IMG/VR virus record: IMGVR_UViG_2648501186_000019
Location: 1 to 19,644 of that record
Strand: one strand, 5' to 3'
DNA: 19,644 nt
Origin: a virus
Lineage: Duplodnaviria; Heunggongvirae; Uroviricota; Caudoviricetes
A program made the position numbers and the translations under genes. This document shows positions 940-19,644 of the stretch, one piece after another (position 1 is the stretch's first letter; the number at the start of each line of letters is the position of its first letter). The notes beneath the pieces are model-generated. The model was not told the origin of the DNA. It saw only the letters and a program-made list of their open reading frames with translations, and ran no database searches.

Positions 940-942
940 CGA

Positions 943-5109: not shown

Positions 5110-5110
5110 C

Positions 5111-5140: not shown

Positions 5141-5141
5141 T

Positions 5142-5495
5142 TTATCCATGCCAGCGTGATTTTTTCGATCTGGAATCGATATGCGTAAAGGTTTTATATT
5201 TGCCTAAGCCGTATTGAGTAGGATATTTCCCATCAAGATAAGCATGGACAATATCAGGAGAAATTCCTTTCACTGATATGTCGGCCGCACGGCCTCGAAC
5301 ATGATAGCTATTGGTTGCACCGCCTACATTCTTGTTATGAGTCGGACAACGGTTCCCGCTGTTAATAATTACTGGTTTCCCGAAGTGTTCGCGTACATCC
5401 TCAAGAATTACCAGCAGTTCAGCGTCGATAGTATCATAATCACATTTTCCGCATTTACATTTAAATTCCTTGCGAGAAAAATGCTTGCTTAACAT
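5142..5495 (-). CDS. endolysin, zinc peptidase M15 family (L-alanyl-D-glutamate peptidase / D-Ala-D-Ala carboxypeptidase-like), 117 aa
   Basis: H-x6-D zinc motif (SYHVRGRAADI) and downstream His (FTHID), as in Peptidase_M15 endolysins. ATG at 5495 has a strong AGGGGG Shine-Dalgarno sequence; the track start at 5531 is TTG. No signal peptide visible. Confidence 0.8.
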   Translation of the reverse strand: MLSKHFSRKEFKCKCGKCDYDTIDAELLVILEDVREHFGKPVIINSGNRCPTHNKNVGGATNSYHVRGRAADISVKGISPDIVHAYLDGKYPTQYGLGKYKTFTHIDSRSKKSRWHG

Positions 5496-5505
5496 ATTAC
5501 CCCCT

Positions 5506-5853
5506 TTAGATGTATTGCATAAGATACCCAATAAATCTGAGTCCCTTAATGTAATAAGGTGCTGTGCCTATGCATACCGCTCGTGCATCACCAATACAAT
5601 TGAAGTTGTAAGGGTTAACTACATCAATCTCCTGCCCTACACGGAAGCGGTATTTAGGACGTTTAGCGAGTGTCGCAACACAAAACACTAACCCGTTACC
5701 ATCATCGCGGATCATTTGCTTGAATTGTTTATGCTTTACTCTCTTCGCCTCGTAATCAAGTGTCATTGATTCAGGGCTAATGCCATTGATAAAAATACCG
5801 GAAAGCTGGTCGACCGGATAAGTAGGAAATTCAGTGAAAATATTTTTAGCCAT
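5506..5853 (-). CDS. hypothetical protein (115 aa), translationally coupled to the endolysin
   Basis: Strong GGGGGT Shine-Dalgarno sequence before ATG 5853; the stop is 10 nt before the endolysin ATG. No TM segment and no recognised motif; three Cys. Confidence 0.6.
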   Translation of the reverse strand: MAKNIFTEFPTYPVDQLSGIFINGISPESMTLDYEAKRVKHKQFKQMIRDDGNGLVFCVATLAKRPKYRFRVGQEIDVVNPYNFNCIGDARAVCIGTAPYYIKGLRFIGYLMQYI

Positions 5854-5891
5854 GTTATACCCCCATAAGATTCTATGAGGGTATTTATGGA

Positions 5892-6497
5892 TTAAACGAA
5901 GTTGATTTTACCCATGAAGTGCTTTTTCATCTTCTTCTGGATATTCTTCTTCATCGTTTTCTCATTATCTTTCCAACTACCCATGATGTTACTACGGTCT
6001 GTTTTCTTCAACACTGCAACAAGTCGCTTCCCTAGCTTTTTCTTGTTCTTCATGTCGGCTTTAACGGATGGATCGAGAAGCAGTATTTTACCAGTCTTAG
6101 ATTTTGTGGTTACATACTTCCCTATTTTCTTACCGTTTCTGAGTTGTGGAATGTTACCAAACTGGTTAGTTCGGTCATCAGTTACAGGAACAAATTTCTC
6201 AATATTATTACCACCTTCAAAGTAATATTTTAAGTATTTTTCCTGATTCTTCATGATGAAAACACTATGGTAAGACGTTTTACCGCTTGAGCGTATCCGG
6301 TTGTATGAATTGACCGCTTTCTGTGTGAACTTGGTCGGTCGATCTATCCTTGAATTGACTTTCTTCTGCAACTTTACCCGCTCATCTATGACCGCTAAAC
6401 CCAAATCCCTATGAAAGCTATTACTAGCTTTCTGTTTCCAACTCTTGATATCTTTTTTTACTTTATCAATATTGGATGTGATTATTGGATTAGCCAT
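5892..6497 (-). CDS. highly basic lysine-rich protein (201 aa), function unknown
   Basis: AGGGGG Shine-Dalgarno sequence; ATG 6497 lies 1 nt after the upstream stop. Very Lys-rich with a poly-basic C-terminus (KKNIQKKMKKHFMGK). Confidence 0.6.
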   Translation of the reverse strand: MANPIITSNIDKVKKDIKSWKQKASNSFHRDLGLAVIDERVKLQKKVNSRIDRPTKFTQKAVNSYNRIRSSGKTSYHSVFIMKNQEKYLKYYFEGGNNIEKFVPVTDDRTNQFGNIPQLRNGKKIGKYVTTKSKTGKILLLDPSVKADMKNKKKLGKRLVAVLKKTDRSNIMGSWKDNEKTMKKNIQKKMKKHFMGKINFV

Positions 6498-6498
6498 G

Positions 6499-6669
6499 TT
6501 AGCCCCCTAATAACGAAAAGACCCCCGCCAGTGTCCTTAGCAATTGTTCATCCACGGTCATAGCCGGGAGTTCAAGCCCAAAGGACGTTAGCAGAGGTCT
6601 AATTGCTACGTTATAAGTGAGGGCGACAATCAAGAGATAACCAAAATATTTCTTAAGTTTATTCTTCAT
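6499..6669 (-). CDS. small membrane protein (56 aa from ATG 6669); holin-like or immunity candidate
   Basis: AAGGGG Shine-Dalgarno sequence 7 nt before ATG 6669. Sequence MKNKLKKYFGYLLIVALTYNVAIRPLL... has a basic N-terminus and one or two hydrophobic helices; no lipobox. Confidence 0.45.
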   Translation of the reverse strand: MKNKLKKYFGYLLIVALTYNVAIRPLLTSFGLELPAMTVDEQLLRTLAGVFSLLGG

Positions 6670-6688
6670 ATATTCACCCCTTTTATTA

Positions 6689-6967
6689 TTATTTTTGTCT
6701 GAGTAAATCGATAACTTGGTCAAATTTGGCGTCCATCGCAACCACTTTCTTCTCTATACCGTGAAGGGTTTGTTCCATGCGATAAACTCTCTCGGCGATC
6801 TGGTCATGGTTACTTTGCATTGTTTCAAACTTCTGATTAAACAATGCATCATTGGACTCTAATTTCGACAATCTATTTTCTGTTGCTATTTGATTTCGGT
6901 GAAGTCTCCATAATCCACCACAAATTAAGGCGATAACACCGATACCGCCATATATAATTTCAGTCAT
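6689..6967 (-). CDS. single-pass membrane protein with a coiled-coil domain (92 aa)
   Basis: N-terminal TM segment (IIYGGIGVIALICGGLW) followed by a charged helical region. GGGGG Shine-Dalgarno sequence before ATG 6967. First gene after the terminator downstream of the gpJ-like gene. Confidence 0.6.
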   Translation of the reverse strand: MTEIIYGGIGVIALICGGLWRLHRNQIATENRLSKLESNDALFNQKFETMQSNHDQIAERVYRMEQTLHGIEKKVVAMDAKFDQVIDLLRQK

Positions 6968-7011
6968 TACGCCCCCGATATTTTTATATAGTTTAATGGC
7001 AAAATTATTTA

Positions 7012-7054
7012 GATAAAAATAATCCCGCCTAACTCAAAAGAATTAAGCGGGATT
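7012..7054 (-). terminator. rho-independent terminator after the gpJ-like gene (- strand)
   Basis: 8-bp stem AATCCCGC / GCGGGATT (7021-7028 with 7047-7054), followed on the - strand by a U-rich run (AUUUUUAUCU). Confidence 0.6.
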
Positions 7055-7073
7055 TATTATTAAAAATTAAATT

Positions 7074-10000
7074 TTAAGAAACAGTAATACCAGTAGTGGC
7101 TTTTTTAGTTACCATTACTGTTAAATCACTGATCCATGTGCTAGGCGTCCAGTTGTTGATTGCGCTTGATTGCACTTCAAAGGTCAAGGTCACAGCACCT
7201 TTACCCGCTGGCATATCAATAACACCTGAGTAAAGACCAGTATTACCGCCATACGCCCTATTATACAACTCTGACCCATTCTTACGAACAATCAGGCGAC
7301 AGGTGTCGTAATAGGTATTATTGTTCGACCCTTCACGCGCTCGCAATCCACCAAAACTAACAGCCGGAATAACGATTTGACGATCGAACTTGTGATCATC
7401 TTCAACGCGAACAGTGACCGTACCCTGTGGATAACCAGCATAACCATTATCAACGTTAACATCACGATGCGGGAACTTACGTCCAATCACCTTAACGAAA
7501 TCACCCTTAACCTGAGTAGCTTCAAGCATACCCTTAATAACACAGCTAGAGTTAATCGTGACGTTGTTCAGAGTACCAGAATCAGCAGTGATATTACCTT
7601 TAACGGTTGCATTCATGAACGTAGCGGACCCGTTCTTGTTGATATGCCATCCGGTCGATCCGTTCCAGTTGGAAGACTGGATATAGTTACCGATTTTAGC
7701 GTTATCAATTGCACCGTTTACGATCTTCGCGTTAGTGATTGCCCCGTCCTGAATCTTCGCGCTGTTAATTGCAGCATTGCCGATTTTAGCCGTGGTAATC
7801 GCCGCATCATTAATCTGGGCTGTACCAATTGCAGCATTACGAATCATCGCATTATCGAGATAAACCTTGTTACCTTCGATACCAAACGGGCATACTTCCG
7901 ATCCGTTCTGTGGAGCTACCGCGATTTTATCGGCATTAAAGATGATTCTCGTCGGTTGCGCCGGATCGTTGGTTGCGCTCATGTGAATACCAGCCACGCG
8001 ACCATCTGCATTAACCGCTAGATTGTATTTGCTGTTAATGGTTCCTTTCAAAGCATCGATTTTTACATCTGCTTCCTGATTCACACCAGCAATCTTGCCA
8101 TCCATTTCTACCCGAACTTGATCAATCTTACTTGCGCTTGCTGCCTCACTGGTAGCAATAGCTTGTTTCAGGGTAGTAGCAGATGCGCTGACTTCGGATT
8201 TAATATCGCCTTTCAGTTCAGCTTTAACCTGATCAATCTTAGTGGAGCTAGCTTGCTCGCTGGTAGCAATCAGACTCTTTAAGGTATTGGCTGAGGCTTG
8301 GACCGTCTGCCCTGTTTCGGTAGTGATTTGCTTATGCATTGCATCAATTTTAGCATCGGCATTAGCGCCAGCTTGAGCAATAGCATCCGCGATAGTTTCA
8401 TCTAAGCGGTCTTGTAAACCAATCAGGTCTTCCAGTGCTTCTTTGTCCTGATCGTCCCAGCTAATGGTAGATTTCATTTGCATGAAATACGGTTCAGACC
8501 AAACAGCATCATCCATACCGAAAATATCGTAGTGAGCACCACGGATATAATAATCACCGTCAGCAATATCAAAGGAAGTATGGCTAACACTATTCGTGCT
8601 TACTGCCCTTGCATCGGAGAACGTGTTATCGGTTGCATACTGGATGATTGACCCTGCATAATCATGTTCTACGTCATCTGCCCAGCTAACAAACGCAGTA
8701 TTAAAGCCACCACGCGCACTAAAACCTTTCATTGGCTTATGTTGTGGGTTGATAGCCACTAAACGCGCTGGGGCGCTCTCTGAGTTGTTATATCCCTTAG
8801 CTGATACTTCTACCGTCAGTTGACGCGAAAGGCCGTTAAACTGGTTCATATCAAGCGTATAAGTCCATGATTCAGGATCGCGGGTACGGTACTGAATAGA
8901 CTTACCAGCCTTGTTAGTCACCTTGATAATGTATGCTTCAAACAGGTCACTAAACTTGTTAGTTTCACCGTTGATCTCAACATCTAAGCCTTGCTGGTTA
9001 TCCCATTCGATAATCAGATCATTACCTTCGAAAGTTCCTGGCGTGCTACCCTGATTTTTGATTCGAATAACCGGAGTCGGCAATTCATAGGTAACAGTCG
9101 GATTCTGGTTAATCAGTTCTACCCAATCGGATCGCGCGATGATACCGAAAGCACAAACTCGGTAATCATAAGAGCGATCTTTCGCCAGTGCATTGACACT
9201 GAAAATTTGCTGTGAAGTCTGACCGAGCTTAATCCAGTTAGGTGATCCGCTTACACGGTAATCAATCTGGAAGCCATAACGGTTAAAATCTTCCGGTGCA
9301 TCCCATGTCAAAGTAACATTTTTACCGTAAATCGTCTCGCCAGTTGCCTTAATTCTGAAATTAGTAGGCTTCTGTACTGTCATTGAATCCGGTAAACCAC
9401 TTGGTCTATTGTCCGGTTTAGCCGCATAATCCAGATCTGTGTAAATCTGAGAATTATATTCTGTGGCGGTGATAGACAAAATACCAGCAATACCAGAATC
9501 AATGCTACGCTCAATAGAGATAATACGCCAAAGTGAATTATTCAGTTTCAATTCATCGTGGGTAACGCTGATAACGTCCCAAACTTCCGCGCTGAATGCA
9601 TCGGTAGTAGTGAAGTTGATAACCTGAGTAATACGAGATTTATTTCGTTCAATGCTCGCTAATTTGTCAATCTGGTTTTCATCTTTAACAAAGCGATATT
9701 CTACGTCTTTAGCAATAATGCGCCCATCTTGACGGATAGTAGCATCATTTTCAGCATCAGCCGGATAACGTAGCATTTGCTCTGAATAGTCTAAAGATGG
9801 TTCCTGATAGATTGCGTTAATGGTATTGAAATAACCGTTAGTGCCACCTGTTTTCAGGTTAACTTTCCCCATCATTATATTGTCTTCATTGAAGGTATGT
9901 TTAACAATATCAGGAGCATCCAGTTTCAGCGTAATACGTCCAAAGGATTCAAACATTACCCCGCCGAAAGTCTGCATCAATCCGGTCAAGTTCTCTTTAA

Positions 10001-10856
10001 AGCTGGCGTTCGGATCACATGCACCGTTAGAGTGCAAATTCATCTGGCGAACTTGAGAACGTACTTTCAGGAATGAATCAACGTTAATGTTTTCAATTGG
10101 TACTGATAAACCATATTTTTCATTTGTTAGGTAGTGGAAAATCTGATCCACGCCGTTAGTGCTAGCCTCAATAGCATTGGTTTCAAGGTTACGAATCTTT
10201 AATCCGCAAACGTCTACTGCTACCTGGCTATTTGGCTGGAGAATATCAACACCAGCAGCAAGAGATTTGTCATCACGACGTAACACAATACACATGGTTG
10301 CAATGCCGTTACCCTTGTAAGCATCGGTCCAGTCTGAGCCTAAATGAGTTTTTGCCAGTGACAATGCGGTGTTAGGATTCTTACCCGTGCGGAACTCGAC
10401 TTCTAACACTTTACGGTATTCTTCTTTAATGTTGCCCTTATCGAGAATGCCATCACGGATCGTCATGTTTCGACCAATCAGCACGTTTTTATTATCGATG
10501 AATAGTGCTTTGTAATGGTCAATTTCACCCTCGGCAATTGCGAAGATTTGCACTAACTTATTGTTTTCTTTCTTAGAAATTGCTTTGTAAACACAGATAG
10601 CACCAGTTCGAGTAGTACCAAAAATAACTGGTAATACTGTTTTAGGATCGTTTGATGTTCCTAGTGTCACTGCGTTATCTGGGCTTTGTACCTTCGGTGT
10701 TTTCGGTGCGCCTACAGTGGAAGCAATCAAAGACAATGCACCAGCACCAATACCGATAGCAACAGCCGCTAATGTTGAAATTGCCGCCACGGAAGCAGCA
10801 GCCATCCCAGCCGACGCACCAGCAATAACCGCGCCGACCAATACTTCTACGCCCAT
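7074..10856 (-). CDS. tail tip central fibre / host specificity protein (gpJ-like) with an N-terminal gpI-like domain and a lambda-J-type C-terminal receptor-binding domain (1260 aa)
   Basis: ATG 10856 with a GGGGG Shine-Dalgarno sequence, overlapping the upstream stop. Residues 1-50 are a Gly/Ala-rich hydrophobic segment, followed by APKTPK...VLPVIFG..R.G, reminiscent of the lambda gpI C-terminal half. The middle has FN3-like segments, a duplicated helical segment and 8-residue (A)IxNAKI repeats. The C-terminus (DDHKFDRQIVIP...VIDMPAGKG...VMVTKKATTGITVS) follows the pattern of the lambda J C-terminal domain as I recall it. Confidence 0.9.
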   Translation of the reverse strand: MGVEVLVGAVIAGASAGMAAASVAAISTLAAVAIGIGAGALSLIASTVGAPKTPKVQSPDNAVTLGTSNDPKTVLPVIFGTTRTGAICVYKAISKKENNKLVQIFAIAEGEIDHYKALFIDNKNVLIGRNMTIRDGILDKGNIKEEYRKVLEVEFRTGKNPNTALSLAKTHLGSDWTDAYKGNGIATMCIVLRRDDKSLAAGVDILQPNSQVAVDVCGLKIRNLETNAIEASTNGVDQIFHYLTNEKYGLSVPIENINVDSFLKVRSQVRQMNLHSNGACDPNASFKENLTGLMQTFGGVMFESFGRITLKLDAPDIVKHTFNEDNIMMGKVNLKTGGTNGYFNTINAIYQEPSLDYSEQMLRYPADAENDATIRQDGRIIAKDVEYRFVKDENQIDKLASIERNKSRITQVINFTTTDAFSAEVWDVISVTHDELKLNNSLWRIISIERSIDSGIAGILSITATEYNSQIYTDLDYAAKPDNRPSGLPDSMTVQKPTNFRIKATGETIYGKNVTLTWDAPEDFNRYGFQIDYRVSGSPNWIKLGQTSQQIFSVNALAKDRSYDYRVCAFGIIARSDWVELINQNPTVTYELPTPVIRIKNQGSTPGTFEGNDLIIEWDNQQGLDVEINGETNKFSDLFEAYIIKVTNKAGKSIQYRTRDPESWTYTLDMNQFNGLSRQLTVEVSAKGYNNSESAPARLVAINPQHKPMKGFSARGGFNTAFVSWADDVEHDYAGSIIQYATDNTFSDARAVSTNSVSHTSFDIADGDYYIRGAHYDIFGMDDAVWSEPYFMQMKSTISWDDQDKEALEDLIGLQDRLDETIADAIAQAGANADAKIDAMHKQITTETGQTVQASANTLKSLIATSEQASSTKIDQVKAELKGDIKSEVSASATTLKQAIATSEAASASKIDQVRVEMDGKIAGVNQEADVKIDALKGTINSKYNLAVNADGRVAGIHMSATNDPAQPTRIIFNADKIAVAPQNGSEVCPFGIEGNKVYLDNAMIRNAAIGTAQINDAAITTAKIGNAAINSAKIQDGAITNAKIVNGAIDNAKIGNYIQSSNWNGSTGWHINKNGSATFMNATVKGNITADSGTLNNVTINSSCVIKGMLEATQVKGDFVKVIGRKFPHRDVNVDNGYAGYPQGTVTVRVEDDHKFDRQIVIPAVSFGGLRAREGSNNNTYYDTCRLIVRKNGSELYNRAYGGNTGLYSGVIDMPAGKGAVTLTFEVQSSAINNWTPSTWISDLTVMVTKKATTGITVS
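7692..7859 (-). repeat. imperfect 24-nt (8-codon) tandem repeats inside the gpJ-like gene
   Basis: Protein-level repeats NAAIGTAQI / NDAAITTAKI / GNAAINSAKI / QDGAITNAKI / VNGAIDNAKI and matching DNA periodicity. Confidence 0.5.
8117..8330 (-). repeat. roughly 110-nt imperfect tandem duplication inside the gpJ-like gene (helical shaft segment)
   Basis: DNA blocks at about 8117-8227 and 8228-8330 share TGATCAATCTTA...GCTTGCT..CTGGTAGCAAT. Protein segments TLKSLIATSEQASSTKIDQVKAELKGDIKSEV and TLKQAIATSEAASASKIDQVRVEMDGKIAG are clear paralogues. Confidence 0.45.
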
Positions 10857-11275
10857 AGATCACCCCCAAAGCGATAAGCATCGTTATAATCAATTTCGTA
10901 AATCGGCTTGGTCGTCCAGATTCCATCTTCGGTAACGAGTCCATAGCCAGAATAATAAGGAGTCACGGAGTAATACTTACGGTTTCCTAATTTGTGATCG
11001 CGGATCAATAGATCGCCGTCCTGTAAATCATCAGTAACTAATTTAAAATGTTCTTTGATAGGCTGGAGGATATTGGTATATCCGCTAAGTTCTTTACAGA
11101 CTTTCAAGCCTTCTTCTTTCGTTGAATATTTTTTATAAAGAGAATTATATAGGTCAGTTCCAGCGAGAATATCGATGATCTTACATGCAATTAAATTGCA
11201 ATCATTCTCGCCTTGAACGAACTCCTGACCTACTAATGAATTGATGTAATCAGTGATAAGCCTAGTTTTTAGCAT
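10847..11275 (-). CDS. tail tip assembly protein, gpK-like with NlpC/P60-type Cys/His residues (about 142 aa)
   Basis: ATG 11275 preceded by GGAGG at 8-nt spacing. Motif GENDCNLIAC and downstream His (IRDHKLG) are consistent with a papain-like NlpC/P60 fold. Position between the gpL-like and gpJ-like genes. The track ORF extends to 11521 but overlaps the upstream gene. Confidence 0.5.
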   Translation of the reverse strand: MLKTRLITDYINSLVGQEFVQGENDCNLIACKIIDILAGTDLYNSLYKKYSTKEEGLKVCKELSGYTNILQPIKEHFKLVTDDLQDGDLLIRDHKLGNRKYYSVTPYYSGYGLVTEDGIWTTKPIYEIDYNDAYRFGGDLWA

Positions 11276-11324
11276 GTTGAATACCTCCATGCTGTTATTT
11301 ACTAGGCTTAGGGAGAAGGGATTA

Positions 11325-11978
11325 TTACTTTTTAGAGCTAAACCATTTTGATTCCGCGTTCCAGCGACCCGCCCTTGAGAAGAATAGATCGTTCTCGTTT
11401 CCTGGGTATGAGCGATGAATACCATCAGAAGCATGACTACGAGCGTTTTTATCGAGAACTTCCCAGATACTATTAAGCTGGAACTCTGATTCGTTGGTAC
11501 ATTCTTTATCCTTGTAGTCAATAGAAATATTGATGTTATCGACTACACCACGGAAAACAGGGTAAGTGGTTTCAACCTTGCCCGTGTTGGGGTTCAAGAA
11601 TACCATTTCGATTTTCACATCTGATTTATCGAATTGCTTGTTTCGAATGAGAGTAATGTATTCTTCTCGAACGTTCGAAACGTTAACGGTGATCCCGTTG
11701 TTGTTGATTTCTTTTTCTTCGGAGTTGGAAGAAATATCAAGAAAGTCACCGCTAGCGAGATAGGTAAATCCGTTATAGTCTAAGTCAAAGTACCCATCTG
11801 TAAGCCGTAGAACGTCCCCTGACGCGGTAATCACTTCGATAATGTGAAACATCGATCCGGTGGAAAAAAGCTGCGGTAGCGTCAATCTGGTAACTTCCTG
11901 CCCCGTCTGGTCGTTGTATACCTCGATAAAGTCAATATTGGTACAGAGTTTATTAAATGCGTCTTGAATAGTAGCCAT
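11325..11978 (-). CDS. minor tail protein, gpL-like (217 aa)
   Basis: Synteny (TMP, M, L, K, J) and N-terminal and mid-region resemblance to lambda gpL as recalled. Start ATG overlaps the upstream stop (TAATG). Lacks the C-terminal Cys cluster of lambda L. Confidence 0.55.
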   Translation of the reverse strand: MATIQDAFNKLCTNIDFIEVYNDQTGQEVTRLTLPQLFSTGSMFHIIEVITASGDVLRLTDGYFDLDYNGFTYLASGDFLDISSNSEEKEINNNGITVNVSNVREEYITLIRNKQFDKSDVKIEMVFLNPNTGKVETTYPVFRGVVDNINISIDYKDKECTNESEFQLNSIWEVLDKNARSHASDGIHRSYPGNENDLFFSRAGRWNAESKWFSSKK

Positions 11979-12538
11979 TATACATTCTCCACTAATTCAA
12001 ATTTCATCTTGCCAATCTGGGCGATGTTCCAATCGATGTTTTCAGTAGTGAGAAGAAATTCACCTTCAACGTTCTGATACTTGATCACCTCACCCGCTAG
12101 GACGTTCTGACGCAAGTTAGGGAAGAGTTTCATTTCACCACCTGATTTCACGTCTTCGGTGATCGTGTAGATTTTCTTGTGGTTCTCAAACTGGATGATA
12201 GTTCCCGCTTTCAGTGTTCCGGTGAAGTTGGAGAGTCTCACCTTACGCCCACCGCGAGCAGTACCAGCAGCAGCCGTAACCATCTGGCGTACATCACCTG
12301 TATATTTTGAAAAGTAAGACAGCGGAACAGTGAACGGACGACCAAAAAGGTGACGTGCTACAAATTCTTTTACTTCGTTAATATCCTGAGCCATGAAATT
12401 AGCTGTAAATTCTGCTTCATAGTAATGAATACCAGTAAAGCGACGCTGGAACTTACCAGAAATGGATTGCGCCTTGAAGAAAGGTTGTTTTGATTTAAGA
12501 GTAAAATCTGTGATTTTAATATTCTTGGATTTGAACAT
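11978..12538 (-). CDS. minor tail protein, gpM-like N-terminal region with a C-terminal extension (about 186 aa)
   Basis: First gene after the tape measure. ATG around 12538 is preceded by GGGGG inside the hairpin; the track start at 12574 is a GTG lying within the hairpin stem. Weak resemblance to lambda gpM in the first 100 residues. Confidence 0.5.
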   Translation of the reverse strand: MFKSKNIKITDFTLKSKQPFFKAQSISGKFQRRFTGIHYYEAEFTANFMAQDINEVKEFVARHLFGRPFTVPLSYFSKYTGDVRQMVTAAAGTARGGRKVRLSNFTGTLKAGTIIQFENHKKIYTITEDVKSGGEMKLFPNLRQNVLAGEVIKYQNVEGEFLLTTENIDWNIAQIGKMKFELVENV

Positions 12539-12541
12539 AGA

Positions 12542-12588
12542 AAAAGCCCCCATAGTTTTATGATTATTTATCACTATGGGGGCTTTTA
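12542..12588 (-). terminator. perfect 14-bp inverted repeat hairpin between the tape measure and gpM-like genes; attenuator/terminator candidate
   Basis: AAAAGCCCCCATAG ... CTATGGGGGCTTTT with an 18-nt AT-rich loop, an A-tract on one side and a T-tract on the other. The loop contains GATAAATA. Coordinates are +/-1. Confidence 0.5.
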
Positions 12589-12589
12589 A

Positions 12590-15109
12590 TTACATTCTAC
12601 GACGCTGGGCGTCTTCTACTGCTTGGGCAACAAGTTTCGGATGGCGTTTAATCGCTTCCATTACCATTGCATCAGAGCTATTAACGTTACCGCTAATTTG
12701 CAAAGGAGCATGTACCTCAATCGGCTGAGAGTTACCAGTGTTACCGGATTTCTGGTTAGCTAAGAAGTCTTTCAGATCGCCGTTAGTACGATCATCAACA
12801 ACTCGTTCCCCTTTCTGTAACAGCCATGTACCCTCACGCGGGATGTTATCAATACCGTCATGCGCCATACCGTCAACAGAGATTGATTTCATCTGCGCAA
12901 CACGAGCGATTGCAGAAGCATAGCTAGCAGCACCCATCGCAACACCCAACGGTCCAGGATACTTAGCCATAGCCTTAGTTGCGGCTTCGTGTGCGTTCAT
13001 CATACCCATTGCGATAGAAACGCCTTTCTGTGCTGCAAATAGTCCCTTAGTAACAGCGTTATTCTCTAAGCCAAATGCTTGTAACGCCTCACCAAATCCA
13101 CCGAACATATCCTGTGTATCTTGCAAGCGCATGTTATTGTATTTTAAGTCAATTTCACGCATTTTCTTTTGATGCGCTTCATTGAGTGCTTGCAGTGCTT
13201 TAAATTGTTCAGCTTGAGGCAGTTTATCAATGTTGGCTTTATGGGTAGCGTAATCAGCATTAGCATTATCAACATCAACGGCTTTCATCTCGTCAATAGT
13301 CTGATCACGTTCACCGAAGGAGTTAGCTAGACCACGAGATTTGATTTCTTGTAGTCCATCGGTCGCACCAGTACGGCCTTTGTAAGCATCTTCAATACGC
13401 TGTTTTTCTGCCAGATAATCCGCTAATTTGATGTTTTTATTCTGGTAGTTTTCTTCCAGATCTTTAAGGCTTTGTTCATAAACCTGTTTAGAAGCAGCCA
13501 ACATTTGCAGGGCTTCCATTGGATTTGCACCTAATACAGATTTACGGAAGTTTTCCGCGTTAGCATTAATTAGCTGGCGTCGTTTCTCTTCGTATTGTTC
13601 TTGCGTGATAATACCCTGTTTAAGAGCGTTATCTAACTTAGCAAGGTTTTCGGTAATCTGACGGTTAGAAGACGCCACAGCAGCTTGTGACGAGCTATAC
13701 AAAGAGATATTGATGGCCTTCAAATCATTGTAGGCTTTTTCTCTTAATTTTTTGGCTTCGTCTGCGGCTTTCTTCGCTGCATCTTTAGCTTTCTTGGTTT
13801 CTGGACAATCTGCGGCTGAATGCGCACCTTGCTTACATACAGGGCAAAGAGATTGAACACGGCGTTTATTCTCTTCTTCCTGTTTCTTTTTCAGTTCATC
13901 GGCTTGTGTTTGCAGTTCAGCAGCTTTGCGTTTGCGTTCTTGTTCTGCTAGATCTTCGAAGCTGGTTGCAGCACCGTTACTAACACCGCTTGCGATGGCT
14001 TCCTCTACCGCATCACCTAATGCTTTAGCACCTTTCTTGATGTTATCGGTAGTCAATGCTGGGATTTCAAAATCAAGAAAATCGGCATCAGCACCAAACC
14101 AGCCAGCAATAGTTTTACCACCCTTGCGGATCGCATTCTGTACTTTAGCGATAATCTCGGCTAGTTTGTTGTACAGATTAATCATTGTTTCCTGTACAGT
14201 TTTAACCGTCTTGATTATCGGGTTAATTGCTGTAAGTAGAGCATCCTTAGCTTTCTGGAATAACGGCGGGAGATTTTCGGTCACAAACTTACTAATAGCT
14301 TTCATACTCAAATAGAAAGTAGTATTAGTAAAATCCTTGTTGAAATAATCATAGATTAAGTTGAATCCTTTCGGGAGGAACGAAAATACATCCGCGAAAG
14401 CACCCATTACCGTTTTACCTAAAGCGGTCAAATTAGAACTTGCGTTTGAATACGCGGTCGCTGTTTCTTCTGAGACATAAGCGGCTTGTTGTTGGAGCTT
14501 AACTTGATGTTCCCAATAGTCGTTTGATTCAGACAAAGCACCGATCATCTTACTGGAATCAGAAGCAATTCGTTCCATACCCGCGATAATTTCAGAATGG
14601 CTTAGTCCTGCGGCTTTAGCTTGGTAATACCACATTTCAGCAGCTTTGCGACCGCCTTCTGGATCATCGGTAAAGGCTGCATAATCCTTGATATCGCCTT
14701 TGATCATTTTAAGCGCGGCTTGAAATTCCCCTGTACCGTCTCGCCATGCTTCCCCTAATTTCTCGGCTGCATCCTTGTTAATATCAAGAACTTTTTCGGC
14801 ATTCAGACCAAAGCCACTATAGACTTTTTCCATCTTCTGAATTTGTTCGATATTAACACCAAATTCTTTCGACATATTGGCATATTCGATAGCCATTTTT
14901 GCGCCACCAGCAGCAAGGGCAGTAAGAGCACCCAAAGCAGCACCAGCAGCCATCCCCAATGGACCCAGCTTACCTAACAATCCACTGATAGAGCCAGTTA
15001 AATTACCGACACCACCGGAGGCAAGACCATCAAGAATACCACTTGCTTTATCTGCGGCAGATTCAAGACCACCAGTAACGCCAGTAATATCAAATCTTAA
15101 TTCTGACAT
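12590..15109 (-). CDS. tail tape measure protein (839 aa)
   Basis: Position directly after the chaperone pair; length comparable to lambda gpH; long helical charged repeats and Gly/Ala-rich hydrophobic segments. Strong AAGAGG Shine-Dalgarno sequence before ATG 15109. Confidence 0.85.
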   Translation of the reverse strand: MSELRFDITGVTGGLESAADKASGILDGLASGGVGNLTGSISGLLGKLGPLGMAAGAALGALTALAAGGAKMAIEYANMSKEFGVNIEQIQKMEKVYSGFGLNAEKVLDINKDAAEKLGEAWRDGTGEFQAALKMIKGDIKDYAAFTDDPEGGRKAAEMWYYQAKAAGLSHSEIIAGMERIASDSSKMIGALSESNDYWEHQVKLQQQAAYVSEETATAYSNASSNLTALGKTVMGAFADVFSFLPKGFNLIYDYFNKDFTNTTFYLSMKAISKFVTENLPPLFQKAKDALLTAINPIIKTVKTVQETMINLYNKLAEIIAKVQNAIRKGGKTIAGWFGADADFLDFEIPALTTDNIKKGAKALGDAVEEAIASGVSNGAATSFEDLAEQERKRKAAELQTQADELKKKQEEENKRRVQSLCPVCKQGAHSAADCPETKKAKDAAKKAADEAKKLREKAYNDLKAINISLYSSSQAAVASSNRQITENLAKLDNALKQGIITQEQYEEKRRQLINANAENFRKSVLGANPMEALQMLAASKQVYEQSLKDLEENYQNKNIKLADYLAEKQRIEDAYKGRTGATDGLQEIKSRGLANSFGERDQTIDEMKAVDVDNANADYATHKANIDKLPQAEQFKALQALNEAHQKKMREIDLKYNNMRLQDTQDMFGGFGEALQAFGLENNAVTKGLFAAQKGVSIAMGMMNAHEAATKAMAKYPGPLGVAMGAASYASAIARVAQMKSISVDGMAHDGIDNIPREGTWLLQKGERVVDDRTNGDLKDFLANQKSGNTGNSQPIEVHAPLQISGNVNSSDAMVMEAIKRHPKLVAQAVEDAQRRRM

Positions 15110-15131
15110 ATTAACCTCTTATTCTTATTAT

Positions 15132-15163
15132 ATAAAAAAGCCCCACCGATAAAGGCAGGGCTT
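15132..15163 (-). terminator. rho-independent terminator/attenuator between chaperone and tape measure genes; copy 1 of a repeated hairpin
   Basis: On the - strand: AAGCCCTGCC, loop, GGTGGGGCTT (two G-U pairs), then UUUUUU. Near-identical to the element at 16413-16443. Confidence 0.55.
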
Positions 15164-15172
15164 ATAATTCAA

Positions 15173-15557
15173 TTAATCTGCGGTCGCCCTTAACTTATTG
15201 ACTAACGCCGGATCAAACATGCTCAACATTGCAGCTTTGCGATCTTCTTCTTTCTTACGCTCGATTTCTTCCAGTTCTTCTTTAGTCTTGAAGATTTTCT
15301 CTTCTTTGATTAACTGGAATTGGCTAGGTTTAATTTTATTAGCCATTTCTTTAGTCATTCCCTGAGAAGTCATATAAAGGGAATATTGAAGCATAGCGTT
15401 TTGCATGTCATGAAATGCGGGGGATTGTGGTTCTAAGTAAGTGTCGAAAATATGCAGTGACCAAAAAAGTGTCACTGGCATATTATCCATTTCATCTTTA
15501 CTCAATCCACGCCGCATCATCTGGCGGAAGTAGAAAGTTAAGAGCGGGTTTACTTTA
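15173..15557 (-). CDS. frameshift extension of the tail assembly chaperone (GT-like product), -1 frame relative to 15550-15858
   Basis: The -1 frame is open from 15571 through the G stop, and its first ATG (15520) has no Shine-Dalgarno sequence. The 21-nt overlap contains GGTAAAGTAA (15550-15559), where a P-site Lys slip from AAG to AAA is possible at the stop codon. Confidence 0.45.
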
Positions 15558-15858
15558 CCGATTCTTCTACCTTACTCGGTTCCGGCATCATAGAAGCCAG
15601 AGCAACCAGACCGATCAATTGTGCTTTAACAGTTGTGTAAAGGGCTTTAACTTGTTTAATATTAGTGAAAACTGGTTTACCGCTTTCATCTTCGATACAT
15701 TTCAGAATAGTACGTTCGTCGCGGTCTTCTTTATTGTTATTCTGAATGTGCTCGTTAAATTCCTGTACGCTCATCGGACGGGCATAAAATTTAAAGCCGT
15801 TGATTTCCATTGCTTCGCGTTTCGGGGAAAGAGCTTTCATTAAATCGTTGATATTCAT
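15550..15858 (-). CDS. tail assembly chaperone (gpG-like), 102 aa
   Basis: Small acidic protein immediately upstream of the tape measure with an overlapping -1 ORF. GAGGAAA Shine-Dalgarno sequence before ATG 15858. Confidence 0.6.
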   Translation of the reverse strand: MNINDLMKALSPKREAMEINGFKFYARPMSVQEFNEHIQNNNKEDRDERTILKCIEDESGKPVFTNIKQVKALYTTVKAQLIGLVALASMMPEPSKVEESVK

Positions 15859-15880
15859 TTTTGTTTCCTCATTAACAATG

Positions 15881-15897
15881 ATTACGATATATTTATG
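15881..15897 (-). promoter_or_regulatory. CATAAATA box plus TATCGTAAT; second copy of the 15-nt motif seen at 945-959
   Basis: The - strand reads CATAAATATATCGTAATCATT; the box ends 31 nt upstream of ATG 15858 (30 nt at the + strand copy). It overlaps the stop codon of the 168-aa gene. Confidence 0.35.
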
Positions 15898-16399
15898 TGA
15901 TCTTTAAACTCTGCTTAGTGCCAGTCTTCTTAATGTTGGTAAGGAAAGCAGCCGGAGGATTGCTTAACCAATAGTAATGAAAACCACTTTGCATACTGTT
16001 ATAAGGAACAGTGACAGTAGCACCACCCAAATTAACGGTTATATTCCCCGCTCTACCGTTCTGGAGATATACAGCCATAGTAGGAGTACCGCCATTGAAT
16101 TGACCAACGATAACGCCAATCAGACGCCCTACGCCCACGTTTTCGGGGTTCTCCATAGATCCTTTACCGCGCATGTCAGTTACTGGATAGTTTGAAGCAG
16201 TTACACCCCAGTTATTACCCAATGAAGTAGACCACGATGCAGTAGCAACAACCGTATCCATACCACGACCACACATAGCACTCATGTTAGCTGGGCGACT
16301 AACCTTTAATGCGTTCATTGCTGCGGTCATCCATCGTTGACCAGTTACAGAAACAGCAGATGACCCGACCCAGCCGGGCTTATTAACGACATTTGCCAT
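15893..16399 (-). CDS. hypothetical tail-module protein (168 aa), Gly/Ser/Thr/Asn-rich
   Basis: GGAG Shine-Dalgarno sequence 9 nt before ATG 16399, just downstream of the terminator hairpin. Composition suggests a beta-rich structural protein; could alternatively be the tube subunit. Confidence 0.55.
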   Translation of the reverse strand: MANVVNKPGWVGSSAVSVTGQRWMTAAMNALKVSRPANMSAMCGRGMDTVVATASWSTSLGNNWGVTASNYPVTDMRGKGSMENPENVGVGRLIGVIVGQFNGGTPTMAVYLQNGRAGNITVNLGGATVTVPYNSMQSGFHYYWLSNPPAAFLTNIKKTGTKQSLKIT

Positions 16400-16412
16400 T
16401 TTGATTACTCCA

Positions 16413-16443
16413 ATAAAAAAGCCCCACCATTAAGGCAGGGCTT
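16413..16443 (-). terminator. rho-independent terminator after the major tail gene region; copy 2 of the repeated hairpin
   Basis: The + strand reads AAAAAAGCCCCACCATTAAGGCAGGGCTT, against AAAAAAGCCCCACCGATAAAGGCAGGGCTT at 15132-15163. The stem is fully paired only in the - strand RNA (G-U pairs). Confidence 0.55.
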
Positions 16444-16573
16444 AAAATTAATTCTTAGCCTTGCGGCCTCGTTTTGCTGTGGCTTTCGCCGTAACTTCTT
16501 CTACTTCTGGAATCACCACCGCTTCATGTTCCGGCTGTGGTTCCGGTTCTATTAAAGGAAGTTCTTCGTTAGT

Positions 16574-17050
16574 TCATCCACCAACAGTAAAGATCTTCTG
16601 TGGAACGGGCTTGCCATCAACCGCAAACGTCAGTTCACGCTGTACGACGCTCTCGTCATCACCAGTCAGATTGACTTTAGAAATGAATCCGTTAAATGCA
16701 GTACGAATACCAGTCTGCTTATCCGCTGATACGTAATACTCTACTTTAATCTGGATTCGAGTGCCGTCTTCGGCAGCTTTAATGAGCTTCTCGTGTACCG
16801 CATCACCCGGAATGTAGTTGATCACCAGTTCCAGATCAGGAACGTTCAGTTTACCAACCAGCTTACGGTTATACTGAGAAGAGAACGACTTCACCTCAAC
16901 CGTGCCCCTCTCAATGGAGTAGGAAGGCCAACCAGCACACTCTTTAATTTCTTCGTATGCTTCATCAGCAAGATCGGTGTTAGTGGTATCAGCGTGATAG
17001 AACAGACTTACCAAACCACCAGTAAAAATATCTTTGAATTGTTGAGACAT
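16574..17050 (-). CDS. major tail (tube) protein candidate, 158 aa
   Basis: Strong AAGGGG Shine-Dalgarno sequence; located upstream of the chaperones and tape measure; size and beta-rich sequence typical of small siphovirus tube proteins. Ends in TGA, followed in the same frame by 41 open codons (16451-16573). Confidence 0.55.
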   Translation of the reverse strand: MSQQFKDIFTGGLVSLFYHADTTNTDLADEAYEEIKECAGWPSYSIERGTVEVKSFSSQYNRKLVGKLNVPDLELVINYIPGDAVHEKLIKAAEDGTRIQIKVEYYVSADKQTGIRTAFNGFISKVNLTGDDESVVQRELTFAVDGKPVPQKIFTVGG

Positions 17051-17080
17051 ATAATTACCCCTTAATTAAAATTGTTATTA

Positions 17081-17099
17081 CGGGGGAACTAGTCCCCCG
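17081..17099. terminator. GC hairpin CGGGGG-AACTAGT-CCCCCG between the fibre gene and the major tail gene; T-tract follows on the + strand
   Basis: 6-bp G/C stem with a 7-nt loop. The + strand continues ACTTTTATTATTT; on the - strand the U-run is interrupted. May be a bidirectional terminator or a processing/stability hairpin. Confidence 0.4.
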
Positions 17100-17106
17100 A
17101 CTTTTA

Positions 17107-19644
17107 TTATTTAGTTGCTTTCAGTTCGGCTAATTCAGCTTTAGTTTCGGCAAGTTCTTTAGCCATAGCATCAAACTTAGCGGTCATTTCCTGCATTGCT
17201 TTGATGATTAAAGCATTGACAGCAGAGTTAGAAATAGTCTTGATTGCTTCTGGATGTTCTGGATCTTCGGTGGATTGAATACCTACTGCTTCCGGCAATA
17301 CTTTTTCCAGATCCTGAGCAATAATACCTACTTCGCGTTTAATTACTGTGTCATCAGAAAGAGATTTAACTTTATCGTAGGTGTAGACTTTCAGGGAGTT
17401 TACTTTCTCTAATGCGCCGTCCTGTAATTCTTCCTTGTTAATTTTCAAACGGGAGTCGGAGCGAATGTAAACATCGTTAAAGCTACCGTTACGACCTGCG
17501 GTAAAGTCACCAGAGGCGTTAAAGTCAAAAGTTGCATCGTGTACGTGCATACGCACCATAGCATTACCGATAGTACCGCTAGGAACATGTACACCCATTG
17601 CTGCGATATGATATTTACCTTGATGGGTTGCTTTCCATACGTTATGAGCGGAATCGGTTGATTGTTGACAGTCGACCTGAATACCAGAAGCACGATCACG
17701 CCAGCTAGCCCAACTACCACCAGCAACGCTACCACGAATAAGACCATTACCGCCACCGGATACAGTGCCCGTTTCAAGGTGAATCATCTTACCGCCGAAT
17801 TTCCAGACTTCGGTTTGTTTCTCACCACGGAAGCGAATAACACCAGCGTCATCGCAATACATCAAGCCCAACTCTAAACCGTTTGGATCTCTAAACCAGA
17901 TGTGCTTATTGCCAGCGCGTTTAAACGAAATATCAGCACCAGTTGTTGTGATATTGCTAGCAACGTTTAGACTACCCGCCATAGAGAACAGAATAGGTCC
18001 AGTGCCACCCTGAGTACGTTCAGTATACCAGTGATAACTTGTAGCATCCTTACATTCAAAAACCTGTTTGCGTTGCTCGTTACCCCATGTGTGTAAGGTA
18101 AATTGAGACTGCGACCCCCGATTAGCATCAAATGCAATTTCACCAGATTCTACACGTACAAAGCCTTTAAAACGTGCAGTAATATTTCCGGTTTCATCAT
18201 TGCGTTCAGTAGAGAAATGTATACCTGTTGGGTCTTCTATTTGAAGAATGTTGTGTCGTCCACTGGCACTATCACCCAAATGGTTTATTTTCATGAAACC
18301 GCTAGCACCCTGACGCCCACTAGAAAAATGAAGAAATCCTTTTTCTACATAAACATCACCAGCAAAACGAGCAGCACGACTTGCACGTTCTAAGACTAAT
18401 GCACCTTCGTTACCATCACCACCCAAAGTAACATTACCGCTACCAAGATGGTAAATGAACGGACGATAGCCGTTCCAACTACCAAATTTATCATTTTCGG
18501 CAGTAGACAGAAGATATACGTTTTGACCATCATTACGCCAGAATGCACCATAGTTACCGTAAATCATACGGAATGCATCACTGTTAGCAGCTACATATTG
18601 ACCATTGGTGTATACAATTTTGGTAGCACCTGTGCTTAAAGATACTTGACCACTTGCTTCTAATTTAACAAAGTTTTTACCTTCGTCACTATACCATTGA
18701 AAATCGTTAGTATCTGTAGAACCAAAACCAAACCAGCCTTGACGTTTATTAGCCCCGTTTCGCTGATCCATATATTCAAAATAGTTACTACGACCAGTAG
18801 GACGCCACATACGAATCGCGTTATTGCCTTGCAGATGAAGTCTATCGACAAATAAACCATCACTACCAACAATTTTTAATACTTCTTTTTGGTCGGTGGA
18901 ACCAGTAGCCAAACGATACACATCACCTTGAACAGTTTCATGCCATATTGTTTCCGCCGCACGACTGCGGAATTTACGCATATATTTTTTATTGTTGTCT
19001 GGTACGTTATTAAGGCTCACAATATCATAGGTTGCTTGTGAGTTATTATCAAACATCAACGTTCCGGCTTTGTTTTCGGTGTTGAACATCGTAATAACAC
19101 GAGCATCGGTAACACCAACAGAAGGTTTAACGAGAGTTAATTCAGGAACATCATGTACTGTCAGAGTAACGCCATCAGTTTTACCGTATTCGACAATAAC
19201 GTTATCGGTGTAACGACCGTAGTTAACGTAGATATCGTAGTTATCACCGGAAGTATTAACCGCAAATACTTGATGAGTATTTTTAGAATTTCGACGATAC
19301 GCCGCAATACTAACGCCTTTCGGGTTATTGTTACCGGAACGGATGACAATTTCTACAAAGTCAACCTGATCATAAGAGTTAACGTTATAACCATTACCAC
19401 CGAAGATACGAAGCATTACCATTCGACCATTCTGTGGGATCGTAGCGGTTGCGATCTTGAAGTATCCACGAGTAGCATCACCAGAAGGAACGGTCATTCT
19501 AACGTTCTTGATGAACATCTTATCAACTTCGGCTTTGGTGTATGCACCAATCTCGCCAGGAGTCGGCTTATCACCTTCGTGATACATCTTATAGCTAAAG
19601 TTCTTCTGTCCTTCTCTATCAAAACCATAGGTTTCAACACGAGA
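17107..19644 (-). CDS. tail or neck fibre protein with a C-terminal intramolecular chaperone (peptidase S74-like) domain; 5'-partial, open to the window edge
   Basis: The frame stays open to 19644 (SRVETYGFDREGQKNFSYK precedes the first Met). The C-terminus (...YIRSDSRLKINKEELQDGALEKVNSLKVYTYDK...VGIIAQDLEKVLPEAV...AELKATK) matches the autoproteolytic chaperone domain of T5 pb1-type L-shaped fibres and endosialidases. The upstream body is Gly/Asn/Thr-rich, beta-type. Confidence 0.85.
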   Translation of the reverse strand, partial: SRVETYGFDREGQKNFSYKMYHEGDKPTPGEIGAYTKAEVDKMFIKNVRMTVPSGDATRGYFKIATATIPQNGRMVMLRIFGGNGYNVNSYDQVDFVEIVIRSGNNNPKGVSIAAYRRNSKNTHQVFAVNTSGDNYDIYVNYGRYTDNVIVEYGKTDGVTLTVHDVPELTLVKPSVGVTDARVITMFNTENKAGTLMFDNNSQATYDIVSLNNVPDNNKKYMRKFRSRAAETIWHETVQGDVYRLATGSTDQKEVLKIVGSDGLFVDRLHLQGNNAIRMWRPTGRSNYFEYMDQRNGANKRQGWFGFGSTDTNDFQWYSDEGKNFVKLEASGQVSLSTGATKIVYTNGQYVAANSDAFRMIYGNYGAFWRNDGQNVYLLSTAENDKFGSWNGYRPFIYHLGSGNVTLGGDGNEGALVLERASRAARFAGDVYVEKGFLHFSSGRQGASGFMKINHLGDSASGRHNILQIEDPTGIHFSTERNDETGNITARFKGFVRVESGEIAFDANRGSQSQFTLHTWGNEQRKQVFECKDATSYHWYTERTQGGTGPILFSMAGSLNVASNITTTGADISFKRAGNKHIWFRDPNGLELGLMYCDDAGVIRFRGEKQTEVWKFGGKMIHLETGTVSGGGNGLIRGSVAGGSWASWRDRASGIQVDCQQSTDSAHNVWKATHQGKYHIAAMGVHVPSGTIGNAMVRMHVHDATFDFNASGDFTAGRNGSFNDVYIRSDSRLKINKEELQDGALEKVNSLKVYTYDKVKSLSDDTVIKREVGIIAQDLEKVLPEAVGIQSTEDPEHPEAIKTISNSAVNALIIKAMQEMTAKFDAMAKELAETKAELAELKATK

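Follow-up and report, generated by a model that had tools for sequence, protein, structure and literature searches.

Why should the tail genes of a phage, normally expected to be read as a single transcript, be interrupted by terminators? The question is raised by a stretch of viral DNA of 19,644 nucleotides (nt) (IMG/VR record IMGVR_UViG_2648501186_000019, positions 1 to 19,644), hereafter called the window, which comes from a temperate Escherichia coli/Shigella siphophage with a prophage of about 37 kb. Its minus-strand tail genes are punctuated by two near-identical hairpins, T1 behind the gene of the major tail (tube) protein and T2 ahead of the gene of the tape measure protein (TMP). According to the original prediction, such hairpins divide the structural block into separately attenuated units and may set the stoichiometry of tube, tape measure and tip proteins. 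Our analysis indicates that T1 and T2 are likely to be sense-strand Rho-independent terminators of one reused stem design, which are leaky or overridden and step expression down along the operon. T1 would be the 3' end of a cassette derived from the capsid gene, and T2 a passenger of the TMP module.

Two hairpins of one stem design

The two hairpins lie on the minus strand as follows.

16415..16443, minus strand: T1, intrinsic terminator hairpin and U-tract (stem 16443-16419, loop UUAAU, U-run through 16415)
15134..15163, minus strand: T2, intrinsic terminator hairpin and U-tract (stem 15163-15138, loop UUUAUC, U-run through 15134)

T1 reads AAGCCCTGCC-TTAAT-GGTGGGGCTT-TTTTAT on this strand (AAGCCCUGCC-UUAAU-GGUGGGGCUU-UUUUAU as RNA) and T2 reads AAGCCCTGCC-TTTATC-GGTGGGGCTT-TTTTAT (AAGCCCUGCC-UUUAUC-GGUGGGGCUU-UUUUAU). 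Both arms are the same in the two elements, and the difference is limited to the loop, of 5 nt in T1 and 6 nt in T2. The stem consists of ten pairs (AU AU GC CG CG CG UG GU CG CG), that is, six G-C pairs and a tandem U.G/G.U, and is directly followed on its 3' side by U6 and then AU. Sequence, pair tally and folding therefore confirmed two near-identical hairpins with a 10-bp minus-strand stem, two G-U pairs and U6, as had been proposed. Within 51-nt segments, the folding energies of the sense RNAs are -16.6 and -17.6 kcal/mol, a stability equalled by 0 of 200 shuffles (free energy of the bare hairpin, -16.1 to -16.5). The plus-strand RNAs of the same sites reach -12.7 and -11.6 kcal/mol, contain a 2x2 internal loop and have no U-tract, the antisense fold being 4-6 kcal/mol weaker than the sense fold. 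The terminator scan listed T1 and T2 for the minus strand alone, and the relaxed motif GCCCYGCC-N3-10-GGGGC occurs twice in the window where 0.00 occurrences are expected.

Both elements lie just behind a stop codon. The T1 stem begins 4 nt past the TAA which closes an extension of the tube gene, and the T2 stem begins 9 nt past the TAA of the T-like open reading frame (ORF), with the TMP start codon about 28 nt further on. T1 and T2 combine a G-C-rich hairpin, a U-tract, a position after a stop codon and maintained pairing, and by this anatomy they are canonical Rho-independent terminators, ordinary in kind. The tandem U.G/G.U is predicted to make the design strictly one-directional.

Pairing is retained wherever the stem varies. 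Among T1, T2 and the copies found after the capsid gene in related prophages, the stems differ only by U.G to C-G and G.U to G-C changes, while a sister stem presents a double G-C to A-U change (AGCCGTCC/GGGCGGCT versus AGCCATCC/GGGTGGCT). All these changes keep pairing in the sense RNA alone, the antisense folds are weaker, and the U-tract is kept in all T1/T2 orthologues and paralogues compared. A scan of viral contigs with AAGCCCTGCC-N4-8-GGTGGGGCTTTT detected the stem in at least 119 contigs, mostly with unrelated loops and flanks, and its fully Watson-Crick version in at least 120; both counts are lower bounds, and the quantitative comparison is that of the orientation control. In this control, a version mismatched in the T-tract sense gave 32 matches, 30 of which were two-sided (they also fit the G.U sense), and the outcome was at least 104 G.U-sense-only sites against 2 A.C-mismatch-only sites. 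Such an asymmetry argues for selection at the RNA level. Together with the minus-strand calls and the weaker plus-strand fold without a U-tract, it bears out the strand-specific terminator structure that had been claimed for T1 and T2. As the design is so popular, however, identity of the stem is weak evidence of homology.

The same stem is also reused within a single genome. Prophage L149 contains four copies, at the end of an upstream operon, after the major capsid gene, at T1 and at T2; the first two are given below.

34637-34612: stem copy after the upstream operon, which contains a Rha-family regulator (AGCCCTGCC-GTAAT-GGTGGGGC-T4, loop GUAAU)
27359-27339, minus strand: stem copy after the major capsid gene (loop UAGUG)

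One stem design is thus predicted, from sequence, to serve at least four transcription-unit ends in one prophage of about 37 kb. A further copy was seen in the unrelated viral contig L086 (6400-6429), where 30/30 nt are those of T2 (A-run, stem and loop UUUAUC) between wholly different flanks, after a tail-fibre-like gene and a small ORF. This copy could have arisen by chance within the common stem family, or could be a horizontally moved terminator. The family as a whole calls for caution in repeat-based inference, identical terminator stems being weak indicators of common descent or mobility.

Two other identities were considered for the hairpins and rejected. Antitermination hairpins of the nut/boxB type do not fit, as the loops vary (UUAAU, UUUAUC, UAGUG, GUAAU, UAAC) and all copies have U-tracts at gene ends. 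Nor do host repeats of the repetitive extragenic palindrome or bacterial interspersed mosaic element (REP/BIME) type, since only 66 of the 5,426 complete E. coli genomes contain the stem, each with 1-4 sites, which are prophage positions. An Rfam search of 14900-17200 gave no match at gathering score and two chance-level matches (E 0.3-0.4).

Distribution of T1 and T2 among relatives

To follow T1, 22 viral-contig relatives were picked via the adhesin gene which lies behind it, and not via the hairpin. The element is identical in all of them, loop included, one having a shorter T-run. In 23 distinct sequences, the hairpin shows 0 substitutions, whereas about 16% of the columns vary within the 67 nt closest to it and 35-40% within the genes on either side; at a rate of 16%, 25 columns would all be invariant with a probability of about 0.013.

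A survey anchored on the gene of the tail assembly chaperone (TAC) extends this result to more distant loci. Of 53 related loci, 47 have a hairpin with a U-tract between the tube gene and TAC, and about eight unrelated stems are represented among them. Phage DCP80, whose tube protein is 41% identical, carries GGGACC-TTCG-GGTCCC-T6 five nt past the tube gene, and two Vibrio phages (tube protein 32% identical) carry a hairpin and T6 17 nt past theirs. Because all these loci keep the position with unrelated stems, we infer that the post-tube terminator is an old and widely conserved positional feature of related siphophages, whose sequence turns over while its place stays. Among relatives of the window, T1 is conserved in both position and sequence.

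T2 was found in 4 of the 53 TAC-anchored loci and in 2 of the 5,426 complete E. coli genomes. Its carriers are the window, L120/L176 and the complete genomes H57 and H58, and variants occur in L147, L148 and L205. Among close relatives, 19 of the 21 informative ones lack it, as do 20 of the 22 complete E. coli genomes in which the block between T2 and T1 is present. In relatives without T2, the stop codon of the T ORF is followed within about 11 nt by a Shine-Dalgarno (SD) sequence and the TMP start (...TAAAGGGGTAATTTATG). The loci with T2 carry a different TMP, and their DNA homology to most relatives breaks at about 15210, in the last ~12 codons of T, and at about 12872, 94 codons before the TMP end. 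The swapped module is made of TMP residues 1 to ~745, T2 and the last ~12 codons of T. The alternative TMP of most relatives begins MTKHIVTIEG, and at least three types of TMP are in circulation within the prophage family. Where relatives share the TMP family of the T2 loci, a hairpin persists at the chaperone/TMP junction, with its own conserved flanks; the T2 variants, which differ from T1 at one or two stem positions, are the following.

Salmonella L147: AAGCCCTGC-CTAGT-GCGGGGCTT-T6
Proteus L148: AAGCCCCGC-...-GCGGGGCTT-T6
L205: GCCCTGCC-GTTATT-GGCGGGGC-T6, before the third TMP type

Judged from these alignments, T2 travels with certain TMP modules as a passenger, and the family can dispense with it. 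The comparison of relatives called for by the original prediction, to see whether hairpins move with flanking genes, gave a positive answer here: T2 moves with particular TMP alleles. As described, the 168-aa gene and both chaperone ORFs do lie between T1 and T2; the pair is not a conserved architecture or a designed unit, given the absence of T2 from most relatives. For the same reason, and with T stop and TMP start only ~11 nt apart in those relatives, T2 cannot be required for the tube:TMP stoichiometry in this phage family.

We also considered T2 as a direct duplicate of T1 with its flanks, as AGATTAATT..AT appears to be shared upstream. This was rejected, since the orthologue alignment shows that T2 has flanks of its own and that the likeness ends at the stem and U-tract. 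A promoter in the spacer between T2 and TMP was rejected as well: a TATAAT lies past the U-tract, but it is accompanied by neither a -35 nor a TG motif and was not called by the scan. Concerted evolution of T1 and T2 within genomes is suggested by the window and L148 and contradicted by L147 and L205, the genomes being few.

Proposed role of the hairpins in transcription

Along the minus strand, the structural genes and the remaining hairpins are arranged as follows.

19587-17107, minus strand: gp37-like long tail fibre (Gp34_trimer and S74 chaperone)
17099-17081, minus strand: G-C hairpin separating the tube gene from the gp37-like fibre gene (7-bp G-C stem, stable, no U-tract on the coding strand)
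17050-16574, minus strand: major tail (tube) protein, 158 aa, ending TGA (16576-16574); phrog_158 major tail protein 4e-19, weak lambda-like TTP Pfam matches
16573-16448, minus strand: 41 in-frame codons past the tube TGA (TNEELPLIEPEPQPEHEAVVIPEVEEVTAKATAKRGRKAKN, closed by TAA), a candidate UGA-readthrough tail
16399-15893, minus strand: gp38-like tail-fibre adhesin, 168 aa (Gp38_N 2e-15; phrog_1121 5e-34), first gene past T1
15858-15550, minus strand: G-like TAC, 102 aa (phrog_344; weak Phage_TAC_13 match)
15520-15173, minus strand: T-like ORF, -1 frame relative to G (G-T frameshift product); weak Phage_tail_T match
15109-12590, minus strand: TMP, 839 aa
12588-12542, minus strand: post-TMP terminator hairpin (15-bp stem and U5), conserved in relatives
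7054-7021, minus strand: terminator hairpin after the J-like tail-tip gene (15 pairs and U-rich tail)

In relatives, the homologues of the tube protein bear the RefSeq name 'phage tail tube protein'. Beyond the post-TMP hairpin come Dit-like and hub genes, a 1260-aa J-like tip protein and the terminator at 7054-7021. Hairpins subdivide the structural operon after the capsid, tube, G/T chaperone, TMP and J-like genes, and the window contains 29 terminator-like sites against 15.3 +/- 3.6 in shuffles. The other hairpins that had been invoked as partitions all exist, and those at 12588-12542 and 7054-7021 are terminator-like, but the one at 17099-17081 lacks a minus-strand U-tract and is not a canonical terminator. 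Between its E. coli and Salmonella/Proteus copies, the post-TMP hairpin shows a compensatory change from GC/GC to UA/UA.

The TAC, TMP, tail-tip and lysis genes all lie downstream of T1 on the same strand. Promoter-like sites number 28 in the window against 49.5 expected, and none is convincing downstream of T1 or T2 on the minus strand. Because essential genes lie downstream without a recognisable promoter, the hairpins must be leaky or overridden. They may terminate only a fraction of the transcripts, or an antitermination-modified polymerase may override them, in which case they would serve as barriers, either at the 3' end or in processing. In sum, mRNA levels would drop step by step, from capsid and tube, whose proteins number hundreds per virion, to the chaperones, TMP and tip proteins. 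Both graded attenuation and the stabilisation of 3' ends are plausible functions of the hairpins. Alone, the hairpins are of little import, being textbook one-directional intrinsic terminators; the genomes with and without a terminator between chaperone and TMP offer a natural experiment on the tuning of tail-protein ratios.

Several points weigh against attenuation by leaky terminators. The promoter scan used the sigma-70 consensus only, so that phage-specific internal promoters may exist. A processive antiterminator of the Q or N type, if used (none was identified by annotation), would abolish termination of late transcripts. Most relatives, presumably viable, do without T2, whose contribution would be modulatory at best. 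Finally, T1 is invariant in close relatives and shows no covariation within that set, and its immediate flanks are fairly conserved too, which makes the signal of selection modest.

The hairpins might instead act mainly as stabilisers of mRNA 3' ends or as processing barriers, passed by an antiterminated polymerase; after endonucleolytic cleavage, 3'-5' exonucleases would be blocked, and capsid and tube RNA would outlive the distal segments. Hairpins stand directly after the two most abundant structural genes, a placement which is the same under termination. Five or six of them precede, in series, the essential tail-tip and lysis genes, and efficient termination at each would severely deplete distal expression. 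The hairpin at 17099-17081, stable yet without a U-tract, suits a stability element better than a terminator. We nevertheless consider this explanation unlikely: a perfect U5-U6 is retained by T1, T2 and the post-capsid copy, and by almost every positional equivalent, a feature for which a pure exonuclease barrier has no need, and no antiterminator gene or nut/qut-like site was identified by annotation.

T2 might also lack any selected function and be a neutral passenger of an imported TMP module, identical to T1 by coincidence within a very common stem family. Its absence from most close relatives and most block-carrying genomes is consistent with this view, and so are the extreme commonness of the design and the stem differences between T1 and the T2 orthologues of L147, L148 and L205. 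However, a hairpin with an intact U-tract is kept at the T2 position across E. coli, Salmonella and Proteus, whose TMPs are 59-73% identical, and next to the third TMP type in L205, and every stem change at this position preserves pairing. A T2 devoid of function seems to us quite unlikely, and attenuation by leaky terminators is retained as the preferred reading of both hairpins.

The capsid/tube cassette, its surroundings and known systems

The tube ORF ends TGA-ACT, and the same frame stays open for 41 codons, which encode an acidic Pro/Glu linker and a basic tail (TAKATAKRGRKAKN), up to the TAA located 4 nt before T1 (16576-16448, minus strand). All 22 relatives retain the in-frame TGA and an open extension, even with in-frame indels; RefSeq leaves this segment of about 170 nt unannotated. 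With T1, the extension forms a cassette that recurs at the end of the capsid gene and is composed of an in-frame TGA-A, a linker rich in Pro and Glu, a basic tail, a tight stop codon and the hairpin.

L149 27469-27336, minus strand: paralogous capsid cassette, outside the window; also in L150, L153 and L172-L174

The capsid copies end with the basic tails KRGRKPKE, KKVGRPPKAK or KKQRKTKE, then a double stop and a hairpin of the same family; the basic tail of the cassette reads AKATAKRGRKxK or KKVGRPPKAK. The capsid tail ...KAKATAKRGRKPKE and the tube tail ...TAKATAKRGRKAKN have 31 nt of identical DNA. In L173, the post-capsid hairpin is that of T1, loop included. Homology between T1 and the post-capsid copies extends into the coding tail, whereas T2 shares the stem and U-tract only.

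Every distinct capsid or tube copy has a single zero-frame TGA, followed by ACT or AAT. The extensions vary from 28 to 44 codons by in-frame indels alone, and the basic C-terminal tail is conserved. They end with TAA, TAATAA or TGATAA, while tube genes without an extension end TAA TAA. UGA followed by A is a leaky stop context in E. coli. The cassette thus shows two marks of readthrough, namely conserved frame and sequence past the stop, and a leaky TGA-A contrasted with tight true stops. We give an even chance to a programmed UGA readthrough, which would equip a few percent of capsid and tube subunits with one and the same C-terminal tail, flexible and positively charged, at the surface of the virion. 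No phage-encoded suppressor tRNA was found, and an AT-hook match to the basic tail was obtained for one variant only, with an E-value of 0.079, below the Pfam cut-off.

The scan of viral contigs for the capsid protein returned 4 loci only, and a DNA scan for the cassette core and a search of E. coli genomes were used instead. The capsid cassette was detected in 54 of the 5,426 complete E. coli genomes, and in about 45 of them it was the sole part of the query that aligned. The tube cassette is confined to a sub-lineage which also has the adhesin. This distribution suggests that the capsid gene was the ancestral site of the cassette, and that the tube gene received its copy in the sub-lineage which gained the adhesin.

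The 168-aa gene behind T1 is, from its domain and database matches, a tail-fibre adhesin of the gp38 type and not a tube subunit. The protein is 45% identical to 'receptor recognizing protein Gp38' of Stx phages and is also present on NCBI assembly GCA_001005685.1. No adhesin separates tube and TAC in L147, L148, L172, L173 and DCP80, where the terminator runs straight to TAC, and the gene looks like an insertion directly after the U-tract of T1 (TTTTTTATTGG|AGTAATCAAAATG...) in one sub-lineage. We rejected the idea that it is a moron, as the stretch from T1 to the adhesin ATG contains no promoter-like site, and that from adhesin to TAC no hairpin. The gp38-like adhesin (15893-16399) is parted from the gp37-like fibre gene (17107-19587) by the tube gene and T1, and the gp37-like fibre has its own S74 intramolecular chaperone.

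The original prediction also envisaged the hairpins as sites of homologous recombination. They might be linkers at module boundaries, or a small mobile terminator cassette, and would then owe their identity to recombination and not to function. Three module junctions do coincide with members of the stem family, the cassette is still alignable where the capsid bodies have diverged, the adhesin gene is inserted right after the T1 U-tract, and T2 lies inside the swapped TMP module. The post-capsid hairpin of L173 and the L086 copy, with their T1 and T2 loops, point in the same direction. Yet the TMP-swap breakpoints (~12872 and ~15210) fall in coding homology and not at T2, and T2 cannot have been the crossover site for the majority of partners, which lack it. 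T1 and T2 have 26 nt in common (stem and U-tract), which is short for RecA-type exchange, and no target-site duplications or terminal repeats were seen. In addition, a stem that recurs in at least 119 contigs, around unrelated loops and between unrelated flanks, and has an orientation bias of at least 104:2, implies convergent selection on an RNA function and not the spread of a DNA element. We therefore regard recombination as a very unlikely origin of the likeness between T1 and T2, and this part of the prediction was not upheld.

Lastly, the hairpins could be translation-coupled attenuators, in which a recoding ribosome that reaches the stop codon covers the 5' arm, blocks the hairpin and so ties transcriptional read-through to recoding; the short gaps from stop to stem (tube extension to T1, 4 nt; T to T2, 9 nt; double stop of the capsid extension, ~2-5 nt) and the dependence of all three upstream segments on recoding (candidate UGA readthrough twice, -1 frameshift for the T ORF) favour this idea, but stop codons near terminators are common in compact phage genomes, the fourth stem copy and the post-tube terminators without an extension (TAA TAA, 6 nt, stem) share the geometry without recoding, and recoding ribosomes, a few percent of the total, would be too few unless tightly coupled to RNA polymerase, so that we find it hardly probable, and less so than plain UGA readthrough.

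Other features of the window and its relatives are reported here. At the post-TMP hairpin (12588-12530 with the following start, minus strand), the next gene, with its ATG 7 nt past the U-tract, has no SD-like sequence other than the 3' arm (GGGGGC), and the TMP stop codon is 4-5 nt ahead of the stem; this arrangement suggests translational coupling or SD sequestration. The ORF list places a GTG start at 12574, within this hairpin, which is probably wrong. Two perfect palindromic hairpins (3379-3400 and 5115-5137) score as terminators on both strands, unlike the one-directional T1 and T2; they mark the ends of the plus-strand genes (1648-3342 and 3610-5109) and the point where these converge with the minus-strand block. 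A 63-nt direct repeat of 75% identity (965-1027 and 1336-1398, plus strand) belongs to two small neighbouring ORFs (MKKTIYAIIVSVCVGG / MKKIIAGVVLALGLVG), covering in each the SD and the signal-peptide-like N-terminus; the two look like tandem paralogous small secreted proteins or lipoproteins. Another direct repeat, of 69 nt and 74% identity (8091-8159 and 8202-8270, 111-nt spacing), lies within the J-like tail-tip gene and is probably a repeated structural motif of the protein.

In E. coli RMDEC332, the prophage form is about 37 kb long and adjoins ydcR/hicB, with terminase, portal, capsid, tail and endolysin genes all on one strand. Both T1 and T2 are carried by RMDEC332 (NZ_CM177021) and by STEC1575 (NZ_CP116044), while 14EC007 (NZ_CP024131) is an example without T2. 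The T2-T1 block is carried by 22 of 5,426 complete E. coli genomes, and homologues of the TMP are labelled E. coli, Shigella, Salmonella, Proteus and Providencia. Megablast of the block against deposited phages gave no DNA-level match, the closest deposited phage, DCP80, being related by protein only. A TAC-alignment profile search of genome contigs (species representatives) returned one mis-binned metagenome-assembled genome only. The DCP80 record (L144; PQ671644.1, Escherichia phage DCP80) is 141 kb long and classed as Straboviridae/Tevenvirinae, yet contains a siphophage-type tube-TAC-TMP block, and may be chimeric or misclassified. RefSeq/PGAP labels the G-like TAC 'cytochrome' in H58, H59, H62, H70 and L172 (13913-14221), which is probably a propagating annotation error.

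Compared with canonical enterobacterial Rho-independent terminators (A-tract, GC-rich stem closing GCCC/GGGC, U-tract), T1 and T2 have the same G-C-rich stem of 8-10 bp, 4-6-nt loop, U6 and position a few nt past a stop codon; they differ by the tandem U.G/G.U, which is one-directional, and by the reuse of one design, as known from sequence, at least four times in a 37-kb genome. In phage T7, the partially efficient terminator T-phi lies directly after the major capsid gene 10 and lowers distal expression. T1 likewise follows an abundant structural gene, as does the post-capsid copy, but T-phi acts on T7 RNA polymerase and is unrelated in sequence, and in this prophage the arrangement is repeated after the tube gene. 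The late regions of T1-like coliphages are built of modules, called 'transcriptons', with rho-independent terminators on either side (PMC11447400), and several intergenic terminators subdivide their siphophage structural region as they do here. Their modules, however, are described as having RpoD promoters of their own. Since no internal promoters are recognisable in this prophage, read-through is required.

For the extensions, a literature search found no report of UGA readthrough on capsid or tail genes of double-stranded DNA phages, which is not proof of novelty. In phage Q-beta, the leaky UGA that ends the coat gene is read by tRNA-Trp and gives a minor extended structural protein, A1. The candidate cassette likewise places a leaky UGA at the end of the coat gene, but Q-beta is a single-stranded RNA phage whose readthrough domain is large and functional, whereas a tail of 28-44 aa is predicted here on two genes of a double-stranded DNA prophage. 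Listeria phages PSA, A118 and A500 make longer forms of their coat and major tail proteins (Cps, Tsh) by recoding, and 10B of T3 and T7 likewise arises by recoding (PMC5009743). As in these phages, a minority of both capsid and tube subunits would gain a C-terminal extension past the normal stop. The known long forms arise by +1 or -1 frameshifting and often add Ig-like domains, unlike the in-frame UGA-A predicted here, which would add a short disordered acidic linker and a basic tail through the same cassette, terminator included, on both genes. By analogy, the frameshift-derived long forms of the Listeria phages would be the nearest precedent for the cassette, which points to a conserved UGA readthrough on capsid and tube genes in about 1% of complete E. 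coli genomes.

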